64,000 bases of DNA from Nitrosopumilaceae archaeon (GTDB taxonomy: Archaea; Thermoproteota; Nitrososphaeria; Nitrososphaerales; Nitrosopumilaceae), in contig CBDATR010000043.1 of the NCBI GenBank assembly GCA_965200155.1, forward strand, positions 65,858 through 129,857, read 5' to 3'. The notes beneath the pieces are model-generated. The model was not told where the DNA came from. It ran no database searches and saw only the letters and a program-made list of their open reading frames with translations. Below, one piece after another: positions 11,880 through 57,657 of this stretch (position 1 is the stretch's first letter; each line of letters opens with the position of its first letter). The translations under genes and the position numbers were made by a program.

Positions 11880-12170
11880 CTGCGTATAGTAACCGGTTCA
11901 TTTGTCCCTTAGTGATTCCTTGGAATGGTGCGCGCACACGTCTGGCTGGTATTCTAGGAATGGGAGTGAAAGTCTATCCCCCTGACCTCACACTTCCGGC
12001 GGAACTCTCCAACGCGACTCTCGCGCATCGTTCCATTCATTCCACGTTTAACAAGTGTCCTATGTAACCAGGAGTCTAACGCGGATATCAATGCGACATT
12101 TAGTAACAGGTTTCCTGCATGGGGCAACAGAGTATCGTCCTGGAATCGATGTCCACACCGGACCAAAGGT
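11880..12170 (-). pseudogene. tnpB: tnpB remnant (no TIRs visible)
   Basis: MNGTMRESRVGEFRRKCE is similar to the 37818 fragment; an ADINA-like segment is present, apparently inverted. Confidence 0.6.
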
Positions 12171-20130: not shown

Positions 20131-20517
20131 ATACACTGGAATGATACGTGGAAAAGAGCCATTCTAGTCCTGCTTGAAATCAATGGCGGTCACCATTCTC
20201 TGGTACATTGATGAGAAAAGTGCGTACTGTCCGCAAAAGCCTCACTGAATTAAAAACCATCATTTCATGAAATGGGTTCTTTGATTGTATTCGTGACTTC
20301 TACCTGGATGTGCATGATTTCCGCCCTGAAAATAACCGGCATTATTCCACGACAATGTGGGTACAATCCTGACGCTTACCATTTCCACAACCCTTGTCAT
20401 ATCTGGTGGGTCTTGCATCCATGACAAGAGTGATGCGGGAATAGTATAAACCGGTTAATACATAAAGAATATACCTTTCATGTTTTGTAGCTAGAAGAAT
20501 AGAATCATAGTATAATT

Positions 20518-27187: not shown

Positions 27188-29116
27188 ACTGTTCGTTCAC
27201 TCTCTGGTTGTGGTCGTTACCACAAGAATTATTCAATGGTATGGAATACCTTGGTAAATTCTAAAGAATAGCGCCCGCCATGACTCCTTGGATAAATTTG
27301 TTGGAATATAGGTTTCCCCCTACCGCGCTCTCCCAGAACCTTCCACCGGCATCATTCCAGGAATGGTAACCCCTCCCGCATGGAACTTGATTCTGGTAAC
27401 AGTAATTCCAGACTCACTTTTTATAACAATAATAATGACTGAGTAATATGGGCAAATTCAATGAAGTATTAGAGCAGATACGTCGGGAATCAGGGAATAA
27501 CAAGGAGCTTGGTGACAAGTTTGAGGTGCTCATGGTGGAGTATTTCAAGAATTGTAAGCAGTACGGCTTGGAAGATGTACAAATATGGCCCAAACAAGAT
27601 TTGGGAATAGATATACTGGCGCATGACAAGTTCGGGGAACGGTGGGCAATACAATGCAAATGTCATGATGTTGATTCCACATTACAGTATGAGGGAAATG
27701 TATCCAATTTGTGGTCTGCCGCCGAAATGAATGGTATACAAAACAATAGTCACCACTGCCAAACCCAGCACCAACCTTGAAAAAGTATGTAAACAGACCA
27801 ATACACATATCATATGAGGATCTCGAATCCGCCAATATAGAGTGGAGTACTGATATCATTCAGGCACGAGAGCCCCACAAATTATACGAACATCAAAGTG
27901 AGGCTTTAAAGGATTGTCTGGACGGGTTCACCAAGCATGATCGCGGTCAACTCATCATGGCATGCGGTACTGGTAAGACACTAACATCACTCCATATAGC
28001 GGAAAAACAAGTCGGGAATAGTGGATTGGTTCTATATCTTGTGCCGTCCATATCGCTCATAAAGCAGACTATACAAGCATGGTCTGAGAATGCCAACATA
28101 GAACATCAGTACATGGTAGTTTGCTCAGACAGTACCGTAAAAGGTAAGGAGGATATCTCTGTGACTGATATAGTTGGATCAGTGACGACTGATCATGACT
28201 TATTGAGGGAGCAGTATGAAAAGACCAATAGCGATGCGCGTTATTTTCTGCACGTACCAGTCCGCGGATGTCATAAAGGAATCATTCAGCGGAATGCAGT
28301 TTGACTTGATAATATTCGATGAAGCGCATAGGACGGCCGGAAAACAGGATAAGAGCTTTGCTCTAGCACACCATGACGAGAATATTAACTCTGCAAAAAG
28401 ACTCTACATGACTGCAACTCCCCGTATGTACAATCGGGAGGGCGTGACTGATGGTTATTCCATGGATGATTATAGTATATTCGGTAGACGGTTCCACGAG
28501 TTGAAGTTCTCCAAGGCCATAGATACTGGCATACTATCTGATTACAAGGTAGTGGGACTTCGTATCTTGGCCGATGATTTGGACAAGGCTAGGGCAGACG
28601 CGGGCGAGGCCGATGATTTCACACTGGAGGAGGAGTGTAAGCTGGCATCAATATACAAGTCCATAAAGCAGCAGGATGAGAGTCTGGAACCAAATCTCCT
28701 ACAGCGTATTCTAGTATTCCATAATAAAATACCACAATCTAAACGATTCGAGATTGCATTTCCCAAGATAGTGAAACGAATGGATGGAGAAGGTGTGGAT
28801 GTACGTCATATTGACGGGAATAGTCGTGCACGGGACCGCGCGTCAACCATAGAGTGGTTGAAGAGGGGGGAATCCGATGTACGAATAATATCAAATGTAA
28901 GATGTCTATCAGAAGGAGTGGATGTTCCCGCCCTGGATGGTGTGGTATTCTGCGAGCCCCGCCAGTCAGTAATAGATGTGGTGCAGTCACTTGGGAGAGT
29001 AATGCGAAAGTCACCGGGCAAAAGTATAGGATATGTTATAGTACCTGTAGTGGTATCTCGTAACGAGGCTATTGAGCATGTTATAAATCGCGATAAATCA
29101 AACAAGCTAATACTTC

Positions 29117-29238
29117 GTATGAGTTCACCTGTGTCTAAATGGAACGGGTCATTCTATAACTGATCGCGACAGTTAAAGAGTAACCGGTTACTATTTTGTG
29201 CATAAGATTGGAACCGGTTCCAAGACGTGAACTCATAC
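29117..29238. mobile_element. MITE variant (122 bp) with three palindromic filler replacements
   Basis: TSD aatacttc; +9, +13 and +8 bp relative to the 92-bp consensus. Confidence 0.92.
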
Positions 29239-29359
29239 AATACTTCAGCTTGCAGATGCATTAAGAGCACATGATGACAGGATAGACCGCTACTTCAATC
29301 AGGCGAGACTTGTTTCTGATGGTGGTTCCGGTGGTGAGAGTTCGGAGCCCGGTATAATA

Positions 29360-32227
29360 GTGCCGCCGCAAATTGCCAGTATTTTTGATGTCCTGCCTGC
29401 AACACTACTCAAGGTCGGATACTATTGGGATGATTACGGGTTCAAACTGGGTGAGAAAGCTGCCATAGTCGCGATGAAGGCCAAGAATCGCGGTGAAACA
29501 GCATTCATAGAACGATTACATAAAGACCTACAAGGTGTAGTCAGCGATACAATAACGCGAGATGATACTATAGATGCTATTTCACAACATATCGTACTGG
29601 CGCCTGTCTTTGAGGCGCTTTTCGGGCAGACAAGTAACCCAGTTTGGAAGGCGTTTAACCATGTAGCAGAAGAATTAGACTTTAGTACGGAATTAGATGA
29701 TTTAGAAGAGTGGCACCAATTAATGTGGTACCATGTTGAGAATATAACAAATCCACAGGCAAAGCAGAATGTAATAATCAAGGTATATGGTAATTTCTTT
29801 AAGGGATTTGACAAAAAACAGGCCAAGACCATAGTATACACGCCTGTCGAAATAGTGGATTTCATTATTCAATCGGCACAGTATGTATTGGAGTCAGAGT
29901 TCGGAACAGGGTTCGATGGGAATATTCGCGTGTTGGATCCTTTCGCAGGAACCGGTGTATTTCTGGCTCGGTTGTTAGAATCAGGTCATTTGGGTACGCA
30001 TCCAGCAGAGATGCTTTTTGGTGAGAACAAGTTATTAGCATATTATACCGCGTGCGCAAATCTGGAAACCACAATGGAGAAGGTGACAGGGATTAGCACT
30101 CCGTTCATGAATGGTTCATACGTGGATACATTCACAATTCCGCCGGATTGGCTGGAGTTAAAGGCGCAGGGTAGGGCACATGTACAATCCATGATAGATG
30201 ACACATTATTCCGCAAGGCGCGCGGGCTTGTTGATAAACAGCGGGACAAGCGCATAATAGGTAATCCACCATACTCTGGTGGGCAGAGAACCGCCAACGA
30301 GGACAAGAAGAATGATTCCCACCCCATTCTAGAACCACGCATAAAGAATACGTACATTAGAATGGCGCCCAAGGGGAATAAGAGGGGATTATACAATTCA
30401 TATGTCAAGGCCATTCGTTGGGCATCAGAAAGAATCGGGGAGTCGGGAGTAATCGGTTTCATAACACCCTCTGGTTTCATCACAGGGAATAGTGAAGCTG
30501 GTATACGCGCCTGTCTTGAAATGGAGTTCACTGATGTGTACTGCTTTGACTTGAGAGGTGATGTGAAAAAAAGTGACTGGCGACGTGAGGGTGGCAAGAT
30601 ATTTGGGAGTGGCTCAACTGTGGGTACCGCTATAACCATCCTGGTGAAGAACCCCGCCAAACATCATTCTACGATTCACTATCATGGCATCGGCAACTAC
30701 TTGAGTAGAGAGGAGAAGTTGGAAATCATAAAAGAGCATGGTTCCATTGCAGGAATGGAATGGGAGATTATAACACCGGATCGATTCCATGACTGGTTAG
30801 AACAGCGTGGCGATACCAGTGAACAGTGGGATTCCATCACTCCAATGGGGAGTAAAGAGGGAAAGCAGGGGGAGATTGGTGTGACGTTTGGTGAATATTC
30901 ACGCGGTCTGGCTACTTCCAGAGATCCATGGGCATACAATTCATCCATTGATAAATTGGAAAATAATATGAAGCAACACATCAACTATTGTAACGGACAA
31001 GATTTGAATAATTTTGTGGTTGATCCAAAACAGGCGAAAAAGAATAGTTCCATGATAGAACGCATGAAAAAGTTGGGCAGAAAGGTGGACTTTGATAAGA
31101 ATAAAATACGTACAGTGTTGTATAGACCATTTTTCAAGCAGTATCTGTATTTTGATCCAATCTTTGTTCATGAGCCGACTGTGGTTTCACCATTCTTTCC
31201 AACCGGTGGCTCCAAGAATATTGCCATCATGGTGGCTGACAAAATAAAGGGTGTGTTCTCCACGTTTGTAACAGGAATAACACCGGATCTACACATCCAC
31301 GAGGCATCCCAATGCTTTCCCATGAGAGTCAAGAAACAAAAGGACAAGAATAGACATGTGGTAGGTAACCAGTCAACCAGTCAACCAGTCAACCAGTCAA
31401 CCAGTCAACCAGTCAACCATCGAGAACCTGGCGATAATAGTCCCCGACAAAATAAAGGGCGAATTCTCAGTATTCATAACGGGAATAACACCGGATCTGG
31501 AAGTGGTGCATCACGGGCAGGTATTCCCCATGTTCACACAGTCACCGGAGGTGACGAGATGAAGGACAACATCACCGACTATTCCCTGGAACTATACCAG
31601 AAACGATATAATGATGACTCCATAACTAAAGAGGACATATTCTACTACACCTATGGCATTCTACATCATAATGGTTATCGTTCCAAGTATCAAGCATTCC
31701 TTGTTAGGGGATTACCGAATATTCCCATGGCGCCTGACTTCCGTGCCTTTGAGAGAGCAGGGCGTCAGTTAGCTAACTTGCACCTGAATTATGAGATGTG
31801 CCCCCGTTATGATCTTGGTGAACCATTATCTCCAATACCGGACGCGCCAAAAAAGATAGCCTTTGGTAAGAAACCAAATAGAACCGGTTCCCCGGGCCCC
31901 AAAGACAAACCGGATCCGTCAACCATCATAATAGACGGCCAAAAGATATACAATAACATACCATTAATCAATTACAAAGTGAATGGTCGTACCCCCGTGG
32001 GCTGGTTCGTGGACAGATACCAGTACAGGGAGAACATAGAAAGTGGCATCACCAACTACCCACTGGAGGGTGCCACCGGTGATGAAACACGCGCCATAAT
32101 AGAACGGTTAGTATACGTTGGAATGGAGTCAGATAATATCATAACCAACCTCCCAACTGAATTCGAGATGGAACTGGAACAAGAACCAACCGGCCTGGAC
32201 AAGTACTACAAGGCGCCCATTCCCTAA
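29360..32227 (+). CDS. Open MTase-TRD half of the type ISP enzyme
   Basis: 955-aa ORF containing MTase motif I (FAGTG), motif IV (NPPY) and the ISP C-terminal domain. Confidence 0.75.
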   Translation: MPPQIASIFDVLPATLLKVGYYWDDYGFKLGEKAAIVAMKAKNRGETAFIERLHKDLQGVVSDTITRDDTIDAISQHIVLAPVFEALFGQTSNPVWKAFNHVAEELDFSTELDDLEEWHQLMWYHVENITNPQAKQNVIIKVYGNFFKGFDKKQAKTIVYTPVEIVDFIIQSAQYVLESEFGTGFDGNIRVLDPFAGTGVFLARLLESGHLGTHPAEMLFGENKLLAYYTACANLETTMEKVTGISTPFMNGSYVDTFTIPPDWLELKAQGRAHVQSMIDDTLFRKARGLVDKQRDKRIIGNPPYSGGQRTANEDKKNDSHPILEPRIKNTYIRMAPKGNKRGLYNSYVKAIRWASERIGESGVIGFITPSGFITGNSEAGIRACLEMEFTDVYCFDLRGDVKKSDWRREGGKIFGSGSTVGTAITILVKNPAKHHSTIHYHGIGNYLSREEKLEIIKEHGSIAGMEWEIITPDRFHDWLEQRGDTSEQWDSITPMGSKEGKQGEIGVTFGEYSRGLATSRDPWAYNSSIDKLENNMKQHINYCNGQDLNNFVVDPKQAKKNSSMIERMKKLGRKVDFDKNKIRTVLYRPFFKQYLYFDPIFVHEPTVVSPFFPTGGSKNIAIMVADKIKGVFSTFVTGITPDLHIHEASQCFPMRVKKQKDKNRHVVGNQSTSQPVNQSTSQPVNHREPGDNSPRQNKGRILSIHNGNNTGSGSGASRAGIPHVHTVTGGDEMKDNITDYSLELYQKRYNDDSITKEDIFYYTYGILHHNGYRSKYQAFLVRGLPNIPMAPDFRAFERAGRQLANLHLNYEMCPRYDLGEPLSPIPDAPKKIAFGKKPNRTGSPGPKDKPDPSTIIIDGQKIYNNIPLINYKVNGRTPVGWFVDRYQYRENIESGITNYPLEGATGDETRAIIERLVYVGMESDNIITNLPTEFEMELEQEPTGLDKYYKAPIP
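31367..31419. repeat. (aaccagtc)6 simple sequence repeat in the TRD region
   Basis: Six perfect 8-mers plus a partial unit, between two homologous TRD segments. Confidence 0.95.
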
Positions 32228-36355: not shown

Positions 36356-36926
36356 TCACAGACAGGTACGCCGTGTATCGCCGGTTTGATGACGGTGGGA
36401 AGCACCATCTGGGCGCATTTATTGCGCGATACCAGTATATTACATGCAGGATTCTATATCGATCCCGGTGATCAGGACGCCCGGATCAAACTTGACAACG
36501 ATTTGAAAGAATTGTTCCGGAGCGCACGTGAATCGCTGCGGGCCGTCCGCGCAATTACGACACTCATTTGAGGCAGGAGCAGATGCATCAGTACTGTGAT
36601 GTTGAGGATACTGAACTGCAAAAGAAGGTAAAAGGATTGAATAAGGCCATACCAGGCATGTTCGTATTCCTAGAATATGACAGTGTGGAGCCGACCAACA
36701 ATCCAGCGGAGCAGTGGAACCGGTTCTGATACGCAGTGGTATTACGTAAGATTAGTGGTCAGATAAAGAGTGGTGAAAGGGCCATGCGCCGCATGTCCAC
36801 ATGTGTTCAGAGATGGCGGGCTCAGGGCCTTTCTGTAATGAACGAGGTTGCTGCCAGAATGCAATTATAATTAAAAACTGGGATGCATTCTATCTTATTA
36901 TATGATCAAAACACGTGAACTCATAC
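36356..36926 (+). mobile_element. IS66 3' remnant
   Basis: Degenerate match to 43910-44501, ending in the TIR. Confidence 0.9.
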
Positions 36927-37594: not shown

Positions 37595-38915
37595 TATAGC
37601 GGTCACCATAATTACGTGGCGCCTCGCTCCTGGACAGCATGGCTTTGCGTTCCGTCCTGGCGCCCCACGGTTGGGCGGGGAATGGTTCTCCGCCCCGTGC
37701 AGGGGAACCGGTTACTAAACGCGGCATTGATATCCGCGTGAAACCCCTGGCTACATGTGCCCCTAGTAACATGTCTGGCCGGTATTCTTGACCGGTACCG
37801 CCTCTAATTCAATCCCCCTACTTTTGCTCTACCTTGCGCCGGAACTCGCCCACCCGGTTCTCGCGCATCATTCTATTCATGGAACGTTTCCGGTTGCCAC
37901 CTTTCCTGGTCATGGGTTCTACCGACAAGTCCTCGATGACCACCTTGTCCACACCTTTTGTGACAGCATGACTCATGGAGTCATTCGCGATGTTGTTAGC
38001 TTTCTGTCGTAATCGTGATATCTTTTTGCGGTTCTTGCCCTTTCTTGTTCTAATACTCTGGAGTGCGCGTATTATCGTGGCGCCTCGCTCCTGCTGACAC
38101 CCCAATGGAAAAACTTCGAAACTCGCGTGCTGGAGTGCGCGTATTATCGTGGCGCCTCGCTCCTGGACAGCATGGCTTTGCGTTCTTTCTTGTTCTAATA
38201 CTCTGGAGTGCGCGTATTATGGAACGATGTCTCATATCATGGATTGCCGTTAGTGACTGCCACGTGTTTCCCGCCGACCTCGAACCACACCAGTCTTGAC
38301 ATGTTGGAATGGATTCTCTCGCTTGTTGATGTGGATTTCGAATTTACGTTCCCTACTCTTGGTGACATGTTCATAGCATGTCCCAGGATGGGTCAATCGG
38401 TTAACCAAGGCCGCGCAAGCCTAGCTCGAACTTACCGCGTCTAGTTGGTGGGTCTTTCATCCTCACGATATGGAATGAATTCCGAGCAATCCTCATACTG
38501 ACGCCTGTAATATGGCACCGCGAGCATATGCTACTGGTAACTCGCGTAACCATTACGGCGCCACTTGGTTAATTCCAGGAACAGACCATTCCTGATTATC
38601 GTTTTAGATCGTGGGAACTCATTCACGTATAATGAGTCACCTTCTTTAGTCCGTATTGTGGACTCATTCTTATTCCTGGAACCACCCTTACTCTTGTCCG
38701 GATCGTGCTTGAATAGCGCCGGTCATATAATGGACATGATATCGGCTACTGATCGGTTGTACACAATGCTTGTTCATCACTTCTATCCATTGGTCTCAAC
38801 GGTAGTATAACGGTTCATGGGACAATTCCAGTAGTTGTATGGTCCTATGCCGGACTATTCCATGGAATGATTCTATGGAACGATTCTATGGCAAGGACTT
38901 ATGGTGACCGCTATA
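37595..38915 (-). mobile_element. tnpB: TIR-flanked degenerate tnpB element, copy B
   Basis: 17-bp TIRs; VDKVVIEDLSVEPM..KRSMNRMMRENRVGEFRRKVEQK and FHADINAA RuvC segments. Confidence 0.85.
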
Positions 38916-41261: not shown

Positions 41262-42444
41262 TATAGCGGTCGCCATAATTACGTGGCTCCTCGCTCCTGG
41301 ACAGCATGGCTCTTATTCCCGTCCTGGCGCCCCCTGGTTGGGCGGGAATGGTCGCCCCCTGGTTGGGCGGGGAACGGTTCCCTGGTTGGGCGGGTAAACC
41401 GCCCCCCGGACGACACGCCCCGTGCAGGGAAACCGGTTACTAAATGCCGCGTTGATATCGGCATGAAACTCTTGGTTACATCGGGTACAGTAACCGGTTA
41501 CTGTGCCCCTAGTTAACGTGCCCACAAGAATGGCTGGTATTCTTGGCCGGTACCGCCACCAATTCAATCCCCCTACCCAGCTTGTGTAAGAATCCACCAA
41601 CTCGCGCATCATTCTATTCATGTAACGTTTCCGGTTCCCACCATGTACTTGACTGACAAGTTCTCGACGACTACCTTGTCAACTCCTTTTGTAACAGAAT
41701 AGACGATTCTGTTCATGGAGTCATTCACTATATCGTTCCCCTTATTACGGTTCTTACCCTTCTAATACCCTGGAGTGCGCGTATTATGGAACGATGTCTC
41801 ATGTCATGTGTTCCCGTTAGTGACGGCCACGTGTTTCCCGCCTACCTCGAATAACGCCGGTTGGTACATGTGGTTCCTTTCACGCTTATGTGAACCTTGA
41901 ATTCGCGCTCTCCTGGAACGGTTCTCTTACGCTAGCATGTCCCAGGAATAGTCAATCGGCTTTGTCGTCCTCACGACACCAATGCCCGGCAAGTGTAATT
42001 CACGAGGTCCGCGCCGTTTTGGTGGCTTTGGACACGACAGATCTTTGCGGCGGCGCGGTATATTATCCTCGTACACTCTCCTGCACGCGACTGATGCATC
42101 CATCTCAACCACGGGTATTCATGGCGCCACCTTGGATATTTTGGTGGATGAAACTGGCGCGCGAAAACAGGCTCGCCGATATCTGCCACCAGGATATCAT
42201 TCTTAGGCAAGTCGAATGTTTCCACCACTTCCTGTAATGAATTCCTCGCTGAACATTCACCGCCATGTTAAACTGGAAAGCCCGCCCATTATCTCGGCCC
42301 GGCGCGTCAGGGAGTGATCTGGTTCCAGTTGTACAATGATGGTACGAACTATTTTTGACATAGAACCATTCCAGTACTGGAACCATTCCAGGACTGGTCC
42401 CTTTATGGTCATGTACCATTCCAAGACTTATGGTGAGCGCTATA
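41262..42444 (-). mobile_element. tnpB: TIR-flanked degenerate tnpB element, copy C
   Basis: TIRs tatagcggtcgccataa / ttatggtgagcgctata; VVVENLSV, MNRMMRE, CNQEFHADINAA. Confidence 0.85.
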
Positions 42445-44849: not shown

Positions 44850-44950
44850 GTATGAGTTCACGTCTTCCGGAATCTTATGCACAAATCACATTAACTAGAA
44901 CAACCTGTTCCATCAGTTGTGCGTAAATTTAGACACAGATGAACTCATAC
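44850..44950. mobile_element. MITE variant (101 bp)
   Basis: TSD acaaattt; gtcgcg replaced by agaacaacctgttcc. Confidence 0.92.
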
Positions 44951-46859: not shown

Positions 46860-47546
46860 AGTATTTTGTCATGGATCTAAGCATTAATATCCGGAAATAT
46901 TCCAACAAATTAGATTGTGTTCATAGACAACAGGAAGTACGTCCAGCGGGAATGGCTTCGATTATGGGTGGTGATGAAAGGGCCAACCAAGAGGGTGCCC
47001 GCTACCTGAGAACCGGTTCTTGTGGGCATGTTACATAGCATTGTGAACAGCATGATACAGGCAGCTATCTTATTGGACAGATACCAAACCCCGCACTATA
47101 CAGACGGGGAAAAGATTGACATAGACAAGTTAACTAGAACCATGACTCGACCGGCCTTGAAAAGTGCAATCGCGGTTATGGCCAAATGGAGAATGGGGCG
47201 CGGATTCATCAGTGCTCGTAGACGGGGAGAGCACACGCGTTCACAGTTACCGGCGAGTAGGTTGGTGACACGCGCATGTTAAAACAATGCAGTACTGGGC
47301 CTATATGCAGAAGAAACGCAACCAGAGATAAAACACGATTTGAAGAGTTCCGGACCCATGGCCATAGTTGCCAGCAATTCAGGACTGAAAGACAAGCCGC
47401 CACCTTGGCAAAAGGCGTACCGCCATTTCTGGCTGATGGTGACGCGCAACGCACACACAATCTGGAATTGCTTGCGGACAGCGCATACGCGTCCAGGGAC
47501 AACATGTCGCGATAATGGAATCCGGACATCCAGTCCAGCTAAATTC
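46860..47546 (+). pseudogene. Degenerate DDE transposase remnant (IS5/IS4-like), truncated by IS630
   Basis: LLADSAYASRDN motif; multiple frameshifts. Confidence 0.45.
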
Positions 47547-56080: not shown

Positions 56081-57657
56081 AGACCGTATGCGCAGAATCA
56101 CATCTCCCACCCTGCACGTCTAAACCAAGTTGTTAGATACGAACAATTGACCTAGTATCATGGGTTTTCCCACAGACTCGTGTGAAACAGAAAAGTTAAG
56201 ACCTAATTTTGTAATACCAGGTATGCTAAAAGTAGAAGAACTCACCAGGGAGCAGTTAGTCACAGAGTACTACCGGCTACGCACCAGGTCCGAGGCCGAA
56301 GTAACAAACCTGCGTGGCAAACTTGAAGCTCAAACAAAGAATGCCCTCGTTTCAAATCTCGATGACATCATAGAACGCAAGGATCAGCTTCATTCCCTGA
56401 CCGGATGCACCCCGGAAGAGTTCAAATGGATACTAACCAGATTCACAGAATACGTAGAGTCCCTGGAAGGCGATGATGCACGGCGATTCTTAGAACTTAC
56501 AAATGATCGCGGCCATGTGAACAAATTTCCCATTAGGCATGTACTCTTAGTTACACTGATACGCCTGCGCTGCAACACAAAGCAGGAGCTGCTGGCAGCC
56601 ATACTCAAGATAAACCAGTCAAACATATGCCGTTACATCCAGTTTACAAAGCAGGGACTGATCAAGATACTCCCAACGGCCGATACCGTTGCAAAAGCAA
56701 TATCGCAAATCAAGTCAGCATCGGACTTTAAGGAAATTGTTCCCGGTCGAGCCGGAGGGGAGATAAAGACTGACGGGACACATGTACGCGTACAACGTCC
56801 TGAAAAAAATCAGGAGGCAATGTACTCTGGTAAACAAAAAACCCACACGTATAACGTACAGATAACATCAAACAAGAAAAGACTGATAATTCACGTAAGT
56901 GGAGTATATGAGGGAAAAAGACACGATTATGGCATATTCAAGAATGATATTCCCCTTGGAGGCAAATGGGGCAAGTCCCTAAAAGAATCAACCACGCCAC
57001 CATCTGAGAAGATAACAGTAATAGCAGATGCAGGATACCAGGGTATGAAAGACTTCCTACCCGGCGCAAAGGTCATAATTCCATCCAGGGGTAGGGAATC
57101 ACTCACTAAAACTGAAAGGAAATACAACCAATATGTATCAAAAAGGCGCATATTAATCGAGCATATAATTCGAATGCTAAAGGTATATCGTAGATTAAGT
57201 CAGGTATATGATGGTAGTCGTGAGGAATTCCGGGAAGATCTACTCGTAGTATCCGGGTTGCATAATTTACACATTATGCACAAGCATACCAGGTACAAGA
57301 AATTCTTGAAAAATATCTGTCCATAATTTCCGTGTTATTATAATTCGAATATTACTCATCAGAAAATCCACTAAATTAATGGTATGAGTTCATGTCTTCC
57401 GGAATCTTGTGCACAAATCACATTAACTGGTAACCGGTTCTATCAGTTGTGCGTAAATTTAGACACAGGTGAACTCATACAACCGTTTAGCTCACTTCCG
57501 ATATACTTCATCAAGATCCGGTTACCCCACTACACGACATACGTTAGTGCTGGCAGGTGCCATTCACATTGTTCATGCTTGACGGATTGTGTGCCATAAA
57601 ATACACCCCAGTTTGAAGCAACATGGGCTGTTACTGTCAATCATGCGCATAAGGTCT
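56081..57657 (+). mobile_element. IS5-family element, copy 3 (contains variant MITE 57382..57480)
   Basis: TIRs; TSD AAT. Confidence 0.92.
56223..57326 (+). CDS. DDE_Tnp_4-type transposase
   Basis: Near-identical to the other two copies. Confidence 0.92.
   Translation: MLKVEELTREQLVTEYYRLRTRSEAEVTNLRGKLEAQTKNALVSNLDDIIERKDQLHSLTGCTPEEFKWILTRFTEYVESLEGDDARRFLELTNDRGHVNKFPIRHVLLVTLIRLRCNTKQELLAAILKINQSNICRYIQFTKQGLIKILPTADTVAKAISQIKSASDFKEIVPGRAGGEIKTDGTHVRVQRPEKNQEAMYSGKQKTHTYNVQITSNKKRLIIHVSGVYEGKRHDYGIFKNDIPLGGKWGKSLKESTTPPSEKITVIADAGYQGMKDFLPGAKVIIPSRGRESLTKTERKYNQYVSKRRILIEHIIRMLKVYRRLSQVYDGSREEFREDLLVVSGLHNLHIMHKHTRYKKFLKNICP

Follow-up and report, generated by a model that had tools for sequence, protein, structure and literature searches.

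The window studied here is the whole 64,000-nucleotide stretch of DNA C43:65858-129857 from the genome assembly of a Nitrosopumilaceae archaeon (2.38 Mb, 51 contigs, 87.6% complete). At positions 29117-29238 its forward strand holds a 122-bp copy of a miniature inverted-repeat transposable element (MITE) derived from the IS66 family, with the ends GTATGAGTTCAC...GTGAACTCATAC and a base form of 92 bp. The copy splits a Type ISP restriction-modification gene (28216-32227, forward strand) into a helicase part (28216-29163) and a part with coupler, methylase and specificity regions (29360-32227). It is enclosed by a perfect 8-bp target-site duplication, AATACTTC, which is read directly on its left (29109-29116) and right (29239-29246). 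Three short stretches of this MITE copy have been replaced by self-complementary fillers. Repeated replacement by a near-identical 12-base palindrome, RKAACCGGTTMY, is not explained by any known process of DNA repair or transposition. The genome carries archaeal amoA and the stretch is contained in sponge-metagenome runs, which identifies the organism as a sponge-associated ammonia-oxidising thaumarchaeon.

The MITE is represented by 508 copies in the genome, counted as pairs of both terminal core words no more than 400 bp apart. An 84-bp core (92 bp including the GTAT/ATAC ends) is found in 364 of them, while 49 copies are longer by 7 bp, 62 by 9 bp and a handful by more. Insertion produces 8-bp target duplications, with a weakly palindromic target preference. 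Its autonomous partner, 1.67 kb long, shares these ends and has a single open reading frame (ORF) of 508 aa, which matches the IS66-family DDE transposase domain (PF03050, E=2.8e-39). The MITE was not found in the nine other genomes of the genus that were searched; these nine and the present genome form the 10-genome genus comparison used below. Two linked C/T sites of the element (GCAYAAC and GCAYAAG) are mainly TT or CC (143 TT, 95 CC, 32 TC and 26 CT in the base form), and the TT/CC mix is seen again in variants a, b and c. The recurrence of this mix implies that copies often exchange sequence or that the two direct repeats change in concert.

Compared with the base MITE, the length variants are clean deletion-insertions produced by five events, a to e. 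In event a TGTGA is lost and AGAACCGGTTCT gained; in event b CGCGA is lost and AGAACCGGTTAC gained; in event c CGCGAC is lost and GGAACAGGTTGTTCT gained. Event d replaces TTACGC by GGAACGGGTCATTCT, a 15-mer with the centre GGT, and event e replaces CCGG, the centre of the TTCCGGAA palindrome of the MITE, by GGAACCGGTTCC. The 29117-29238 copy belongs to class aFG+d+e. It carries filler d at 29141-29155 (between exact anchors, GCGTAA stands in 226 copies and the filler in 14), a twice re-hit form of filler a, AGAGTAACCGGTTACTAT, at 29177-29194, and filler e at 29210-29221, all on the forward strand. The earlier note on this DNA, made from its letters alone, had read three replacements here. All three are present and derived in comparison with the base MITE of 364 copies, but the middle one is not a single event: TGTGA was replaced via the intermediates AGAACCGGTTCT and AGAGTAACCGGTTCT. 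The succession runs from AGAACCGGTTCT (34 copies) through AGAGTAACCGGTTCT (5 copies) to the window form AGAGTAACCGGTTACTAT (3 copies). In a further step, H, GGAACCGGTTCC itself was re-hit to give GGAGTAACCGGTTACGTTCC in one copy.

Fillers b and c lie in other MITE copies of the window. Filler b occupies 2435-2446 on the forward strand and, in a third copy of reverse orientation, 57430-57441; filler c occupies 44897-44911 on the reverse strand. Both replacements agree with the earlier reading of these copies. The two fillers have a common left boundary; one hairpin loop was hit twice, with c as an event distinct from b. By marker strings the base form has 364 copies, c 60, a 34 and b 14; the nested series comprises a+d (3 copies), a+d+e (1), aF+d+e (5), aFG+d+e (2, both with perfect 8-bp duplications) and aFG+d+eH (1). 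Perfect 8/8 duplications flank 225/364 base, 32/60 c, 21/34 a, 6/14 b and 3/3 a+d copies. Since the filled variants own 8-bp duplications at new loci, each replacement preceded further transposition.

Replacement favours small hairpin loops. Events b and c replace the loop of a predicted hairpin, AACTG-ATCGCGA-CAGTT, and later hits fall in palindrome centres, namely that of TTCCGGAA (event e) and those of earlier fillers (the re-hits). In the base MITE, the stems that close the five replaced segments add up to a length of 7, whereas random placement gives 1.70 (P=0.004, 20000 draws).

Each half of a filler, read 5' to 3' on its own strand, has AACC preceded by AG, GG, GT or AT. The halves assort freely: 26 non-redundant sites include 9 of the 10 unordered pairs that are possible, and 7 of the 26 are symmetric, against 7.1 expected under independence (both hand tallies). 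Most events are exactly 12 nt long; three have 1-4 extra junction bases, and two are 15-mers of the form GGAAC-N-GGT-N'-RTTCT. Independent halves fit two ends that each receive RKAACC(GG) and are joined at CCGG. The permitted outer dinucleotides, {A or G}{G or T}, would also be the set expected of a single imperfect palindrome (e.g., AGAACCGGTTAC) that self-anneals and has its two mismatched outer pairs resolved independently.

Outside the MITE, comparison of paralogues brings the number of clear polarised events to about ten, in at least five element families, some of them nested; recurrence, as opposed to one ancestral event, is thereby borne out. In these events 4-9 nt are lost and 12-16 nt gained (net +6 to +9). 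Neither direct repeats nor a target-site duplication flanks any of these approximately ten events, and target bases are missing instead. The fillers are unrelated to their flanks, and the events are true deletions plus insertions, as had been claimed.

Filler g, TGGAACCGGTTCT, lies at 36715-36727 (forward strand) in an IS66-family transposase gene, the IS66 remnant of the earlier note, where it replaces GCTTTGC. Exact anchors give 33 filled copies (28+3+2) against 22 empty ones (21+1), and the paralogue alignment agrees. The filler reads ...AEQ-WNRF-stop, its in-frame TGA coming soon after the NNPAEQ stretch and leaving a protein of 457 aa in place of 508. The truncated form of the transposase outnumbers the intact one (33 against 22, e.g., locus L021); it may be mobilised in trans or act as a regulator.

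In the Type ISP gene, AGAACCGGTTCC at 31880-31891 (forward strand) stands where paralogues have GACGGT, an in-frame addition of 6 nt (Type_ISP_C domain); in the alignment two copies have AGAACCGGTTCC and three have GACGGT. A decayed TnpB (OrfB_IS605) element carries GGAACCGGTTAC at 37704-37715 (forward strand), where other copies of its family mostly have GAAACCGGTTAC, as does the second TnpB-element copy of the window at the same family position (41429-41440, forward strand). In this family of about 25 copies one member has a 16-nt stretch and the others have 24 nt containing GTAACCGGTTTC. The gain noted earlier near 41490 is real as well: GTAACCGGTTAC (41490-41501, forward strand) is part of a 21-nt stretch missing from the paralogue at window positions ~37690-37820. 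At 47009-47020 (forward strand) AGAACCGGTTCT occurs inside TGAGAACCGGTTCTTG, where about six diverged paralogues have AGTATGCCG or similar; these are only ~66% identical, and the boundaries of the replacement are approximate. The same words had been reported from other decayed DNA. This holds for 37704 and 47009-47020, while 11889 (GTAACCGGTTCA, with no paralogue for comparison) and 48206 (the 11-mer GGAACGGTTCC) are weaker sites. The core word AACCGGTT at 20449 and 51517 misfits the 12-mer and looks like chance.

The word is strongly over-represented. In the window AACCGGTT occurs 13 times, against a mean of 0.89 in 100 shuffles, none of which attained that count. The whole genome has 233 occurrences in 91 distinct contexts, against 42.5 expected under an order-3 Markov model. 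Occurrences of AACCGGTT within long ORFs mostly misfit the 12-mer. The full pattern RKAACCGGTTMY has 162 occurrences and its backward reading, taken as control, has 4; the 162 fall into 30 flank-context clusters, against ~4 expected. The pattern RKAAC-N2-GTTMY has 207 matches, 162 of them with a CG spacer, and only this CG-centred 12-mer is enriched; other spacer lengths of RKAAC-GTTMY are at or below the control level, save for the single c event. For a 13-mer, AGAACGCCGTTCT, in another repeat no empty/filled contrast was found. At C10:386960-387440, 13 tandem 39-bp units each contain CAGAACCGGTTGTGG; this array, probably a coding repeat, raises the raw AACCGGTT counts and is unrelated to the fillers.

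Among 401 genomes of the family (this genome, G000, and 400 others, including five unpublished ones used for counts only) the 12-mer is essentially unique to this genome. Thirty relatives have 0-3 occurrences, except for 12 in G008, the family member with the second-highest count. The range over all 400 others is 0-12, and the next values after G008 are 8, 7 (with a control count also of 7) and 6.

The fillers are also present in independent read sets. In Logan contigs from runs X1, X2 and X5, which belong to two studies, contigs of the unique left flank reach 29145/29146, into filler d, and contigs of the unique right flank begin at 29209/29210 and include filler e, with 0-1 differences in both flanks. 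In a fourth run, raw reads cover the 29117-29238 element at low depth. The occurrence of the fillers in contigs of three runs and two studies rules out an assembly artefact. It is thus hardly credible that there is no process at all, only chance similarity, ancestral polymorphism of repeat subfamilies or an assembly or library artefact: most copies do hitch-hike in a few repeat families, so that raw counts overstate events, and the sites at 11889, 20449, 48206 and 51517 are weak, but the 30 context clusters, the nested derived states with clear polarity, the presence of each variant at many loci with its own duplications, the independent contigs and the 400 family genomes without enrichment all speak against it.

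The preferred reading, to which a probability of about 0.4 is assigned, is that DNA breaks at hairpin-prone sites, is rejoined by way of a stereotyped self-complementary filler and is then amplified by transposition. A lineage-specific mutational process, acting mainly within mobile and defence DNA, would swap a few bases at such sites for a self-complementary word. A nick or break could occur in or beside the loop of a small hairpin or at a palindrome centre, followed by the loss of 4-9 nt. Each 3' end would then gain about 6-8 nt, RKAACC(GG), or a self-annealed oligonucleotide would be captured. The two sides could join at the self-complementary CCGG/CG to give the 12-mer or, in rare outcomes, a longer product, either a 13-16-mer in which bases were added at the junction or a 15-mer centred on GGT. 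The carrier elements would keep transposing, by which some 25-30 events could have given rise to 162 copies, and each new palindrome would itself be a target for nested hits.

The earlier note had already envisaged a 3' extension of both ends of a break. The independent halves fit that part of its proposal; for the non-templated or RNA- or protein-templated character of the extension neither an enzyme nor a template was found. Its alternative, capture of a short oligonucleotide, explains the same data if that oligonucleotide is preformed and self-annealed. The hairpin-loop targets, the IS66-family IS and MITE hosts, the stop codon in the transposase gene and the near-uniqueness of the word among 401 genomes go beyond that note. 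A bolder reading is that this lineage has an activity by which one defined, self-complementary word is written into DNA where hairpins have their loops and palindromes their centres. It could involve a template-carrying or sequence-restricted polymerase or an oligonucleotide-joining integrase; this reading is considered unlikely.

Several observations weigh against breakage and filler joining. End joining usually yields less regular products than the near-constant 12 nt seen here. Half-fillers, the expected residue of messy joining, are not enriched (473 RKAACCGG without a following TT, against 200-462 for control words). Identical variants are found on both TT and CC haplotypes, which calls for recombination between copies or recurrent identical events. 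Repeated flanks surround 148 of the 162 12-mers, while repeated 20-mers cover 28% of the genome bases; the process may therefore be tied to transposition and not to general breakage, or purifying selection hides events elsewhere. No donor for the two 15-mers or for their sub-words of at least 10 nt was found elsewhere in the genome. The enzymes searched for tell against it too. Neither Ku nor NucS was found in this genome, the Y1 transposase (PF01797) has no match in any of the 10 genus genomes (the control was positive in 6 of 14 reference genomes), and, of the candidates suggested earlier, Prim-Pol is absent from the 10 genus genomes and the sole reverse transcriptase (RVT_1) match in the assembly belongs to a eukaryote-type Ty3/gypsy element on a probable contaminant contig, C50. 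The assembly is 87.6% complete, so an enzyme gene could be missing from these searches. For an NgoMIV-type endonuclease and a protein-primed PolB there was no match, with the controls also silent.

The element on that contig (C50:20800-24281, loci L001 and L002) is Ty3/gypsy-like, with ORFs for a CCHC gag, a protease-like protein, a reverse transcriptase and an integrase-like protein. Almost certainly it stems from the sponge host and was binned together with the archaeal DNA, and the whole contig (29.6 kb) is probably contamination.

Several possible sources of the breaks or of the word were tried and rejected. IS66 transposition is not a sufficient cause: in the nine other genomes of the genus IS66 matches number 3-52 and the word is not enriched, hence IS66 activity alone does not produce it. 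Cleavage by TnpB is unlikely as the current agent, all 17 TnpB matches lying in frames of at most 349 aa, against ~440-480 aa in sister genomes. These OrfB_IS605 matches (e.g., C24:207086-207397 and window positions 37818-38105) have frames of 120-349 aa, several with stops, and the TnpB elements of this genome appear uniformly decayed. Self-targeting by CRISPR gave 2 partial matches outside the array for 287 spacers, none in the MITE or an IS. The array itself (C9:69442-91979) has 288 repeats (ATTTCCGCAGCCTAACGGTTGCGGCCTCATTGAAGG) with spacers of 34-44 nt and lies downstream of Cas1, a single-copy gene here, in a 555-aa open frame; one spacer matches C25:4806-4833 over 28 of 37 nt.

The cutting chemistry of R.HinP1I-family endonucleases at 5'-CG would fit RKAAC^CG-GTTMY. 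A cassette of such an endonuclease and a methylase was nevertheless rejected as the cause, the endonuclease family being present in 12 of the 401 genomes, including 5 of the 9 other genus genomes, none of them enriched, and absent from G008. The cassette of this genome (locus L036, C24:349300-351900) encodes a D12-class adenine methyltransferase (322 aa) and the endonuclease, the latter in a short frame (162-191 aa) that covers only profile positions 43-208. It lies between two 29-nt direct repeats with 76% identity, spaced 1870 bp from one another and both holding a 12-mer; on the left the flank is similar to a terminal repeat of IS66 type, and on the right the repeat is followed by an IS end.

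Short-patch copying from existing genomic palindromes, combined with selection, would make the word a functional motif of mobile elements, such as a binding site or hairpin for an IS66-family transposase or a host factor. Replication that stalls at hairpins would switch template to a further copy of the palindrome, and elements that gain the motif would be mobilised better. Two positions hint at such a motif instead of a scar and so also weigh against the preferred reading: one IS66-like element has the 12-mer 17 nt inside both of its inverted terminal repeats, and about 25 TnpB-type elements have it ~150 bp inside their end. A homologous element in genome G008 has GGAACCGGTTAT nearby; that G008 element has no match in this genome and no clear transposase close by. 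Filled MITE variants were amplified far more often than they remained singletons, and variants occur on several MITE haplotypes, as expected of gene conversion. Contiguous copying of 12-mers should, however, keep existing left-right pairs, whereas the halves assort freely without an excess of symmetric sites. There is no flanking homology or common flank between sites, the 15-mers have no genomic donor, and IS66 is abundant in the nine sister genomes without the word. A filler that truncates a transposase is also hard to see as an advantage. On balance, copying with selection is a doubtful explanation. No adjacent or genomic template was found for the fillers in general, in line with the earlier expectation.

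The fillers might also be scars of an unseen mobile element with the ends RKAACCGG...CCGGTTMY and without target duplication, which was lost by excision or by CCGG-CCGG deletion that left the tips. The GTAACC half is the tip of the IS66-like elements of this genome (GTAACCGTTTAGGTC, ~78 ends), CCGG within inverted tips would serve as a direct repeat for deletion, and independent halves fit imperfect terminal repeats. The 1.87-kb methylase/endonuclease cassette does lie between two 12-mers in 29-nt direct repeats, but its endonuclease family occurs without enrichment in the genomes named above and is missing from G008. AGAACC and GGAACC, the commonest halves (26 of 52, hand tally), match no repeat boundary: no multi-copy repeat in the genome starts with either. 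In 47 MITE copies with the 5' end and without a nearby exact 3' end word, no larger unknown insert was found at the filler positions, and the truly interrupted copies among them carry other known IS. Half-sites are not enriched, there is no target duplication and 4-9 bp of target are missing, though the duplications made by the IS66-type elements of this genome measure 8 bp. The tiny element with an excision scar, another alternative of the earlier note, is weakened by the lack of a duplication and of a parent, with the IS66-like GTAACC tips as the only match, and is regarded as quite improbable.

For one unique-looking filler pair, empty sites were sought in sister genomes without a DNA match, and the site is an old MITE relative. 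Literature searches with the exact words (AACCGGTT and three 12-mers) returned only unrelated papers, with most subscription journals outside their scope, and titles and abstracts on archaeal filler DNA and on MITEs of sponge Thaumarchaeota contained nothing describing the fillers.

Comparison with known systems points to end joining as the closest class. Fillers of alternative end joining arise with polymerase theta or by synthesis-dependent microhomology-mediated end joining (PMC4912351, PMC2943611). The likeness lies in the few bases lost, the short insert at a single junction, the short self-complementary overlap and the occasional added junction bases. Those fillers are copied from within tens of bases of the break or are random, whereas here one word appears at unrelated sites without a local or genomic template. 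The events thus match the class of filler insertion at an end-joining junction, but the word is neither local nor random. At hairpin-opened ends of V(D)J or hAT type, P nucleotides form a palindrome with the local flank, and N nucleotides are random; the hairpin association, the small losses with added bases and the palindromic additions are shared, but here the same word, unrelated to the flanks, appears at every site.

Excision footprints and the remnants of 'nearly precise excision' (Tc1/mariner, hAT, P element, Tn10) resemble the fillers in being short palindromic remnants with two tips and independent halves. Such footprints have a preserved target duplication on either side and presuppose a parent element, while here target bases are missing, there is no duplication and no parent element was found. 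Considered as a minute IS or MITE (a 'nano-element'), the word has inverted ends and varied flanks, but no duplication, and it replaces target bases; 12 bp is far below the size of any known transposase substrate. REP/REPIN elements are likewise short hairpin-forming palindromes that multiply within one genome. They are moved by RAYT (Y1) transposases, are 20-40 nt long and have a conserved 5' tetranucleotide, whereas no Y1 transposase was found in the 10 genus genomes and the 12-mers take the place of bases of the target.

HIP1, the highly iterated octamer palindrome GCGATCGC of cyanobacteria, occurs about once per gene and is spread through genes (PMC5861425, PMC4390886). It too is a single lineage-specific palindromic word, greatly over-represented by a mechanism left unexplained. 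The present word differs in arriving by deletion-insertion, in having most copies (148/162) in repeats and in mostly misfitting the 12-mer where its core falls in long ORFs. HIP1 arises by substitution and is linked to methyltransferases. A word linked to a restriction site would be another parallel, but the presence of the R.HinP1I-family gene does not track the word.

If breakage and filler joining are the true course, short insertions at repair junctions can be something other than random or copied from nearby, and a cell can add one defined word repeatedly. This would point to an undescribed enzyme or small nucleic acid in a sponge-associated thaumarchaeon, and the fillers would be natural tags of DNA break sites, here the hairpin loops of mobile elements. 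It would be relevant to break repair in archaea, which is poorly known, and to DNA-insertion tools. A DNA-writing activity, if real, would tag mobile and defence genes and sometimes disable them (a stop in ~33 of 55 IS66 transposase copies), and would have no described counterpart. If the word were instead a repeatedly gained binding site for a transposase or host factor, it would represent convergent evolution within selfish DNA. The fillers display a stepwise diversification of MITE subfamilies and the truncation of one transposase gene whose truncated copy is still spreading.

Some further observations concern the word composition and the repeats of this genome. GCCGGC is its most avoided hexamer palindrome (150 observed, 539 expected, ratio 0.28), and the octamers AGCCGGCT, GGCCGGCC and CGCCGGCG are almost absent, which suggests past or present restriction at GCCGGC. 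A repeat of about 1 kb (locus L044, C13:40860-42020) has ~75 copies, and its ends, TGTAATGTATGAAAAGTC and TCAATAGTACGAAAAGTA, occur 80 and 72 times genome-wide. The L044 copy lacks a long ORF, and the only Cas1 of the assembly is the one beside the CRISPR array. This copy is flanked by a 15-bp duplication, CATAAGATTCCGGAA, and a second one (C5:82483-83616) by 16 bp, unusually long for an IS; repeats of this type have inserted at least 8 times at or beside the TTCCGGAA palindrome of the MITE.

Locus L054 (C24:369300-376600) has two inverted IS66-like terminal repeats (GTAACAAGTTCAACCAG-GGAACCGGTTCT-ATTCC...) 4.1 kb apart. They enclose two MITEs and a gene for a 743-aa fibronectin-III repeat protein, an 'eukaryote-like' symbiont gene, and the locus may be a composite element carrying a host-interaction gene.

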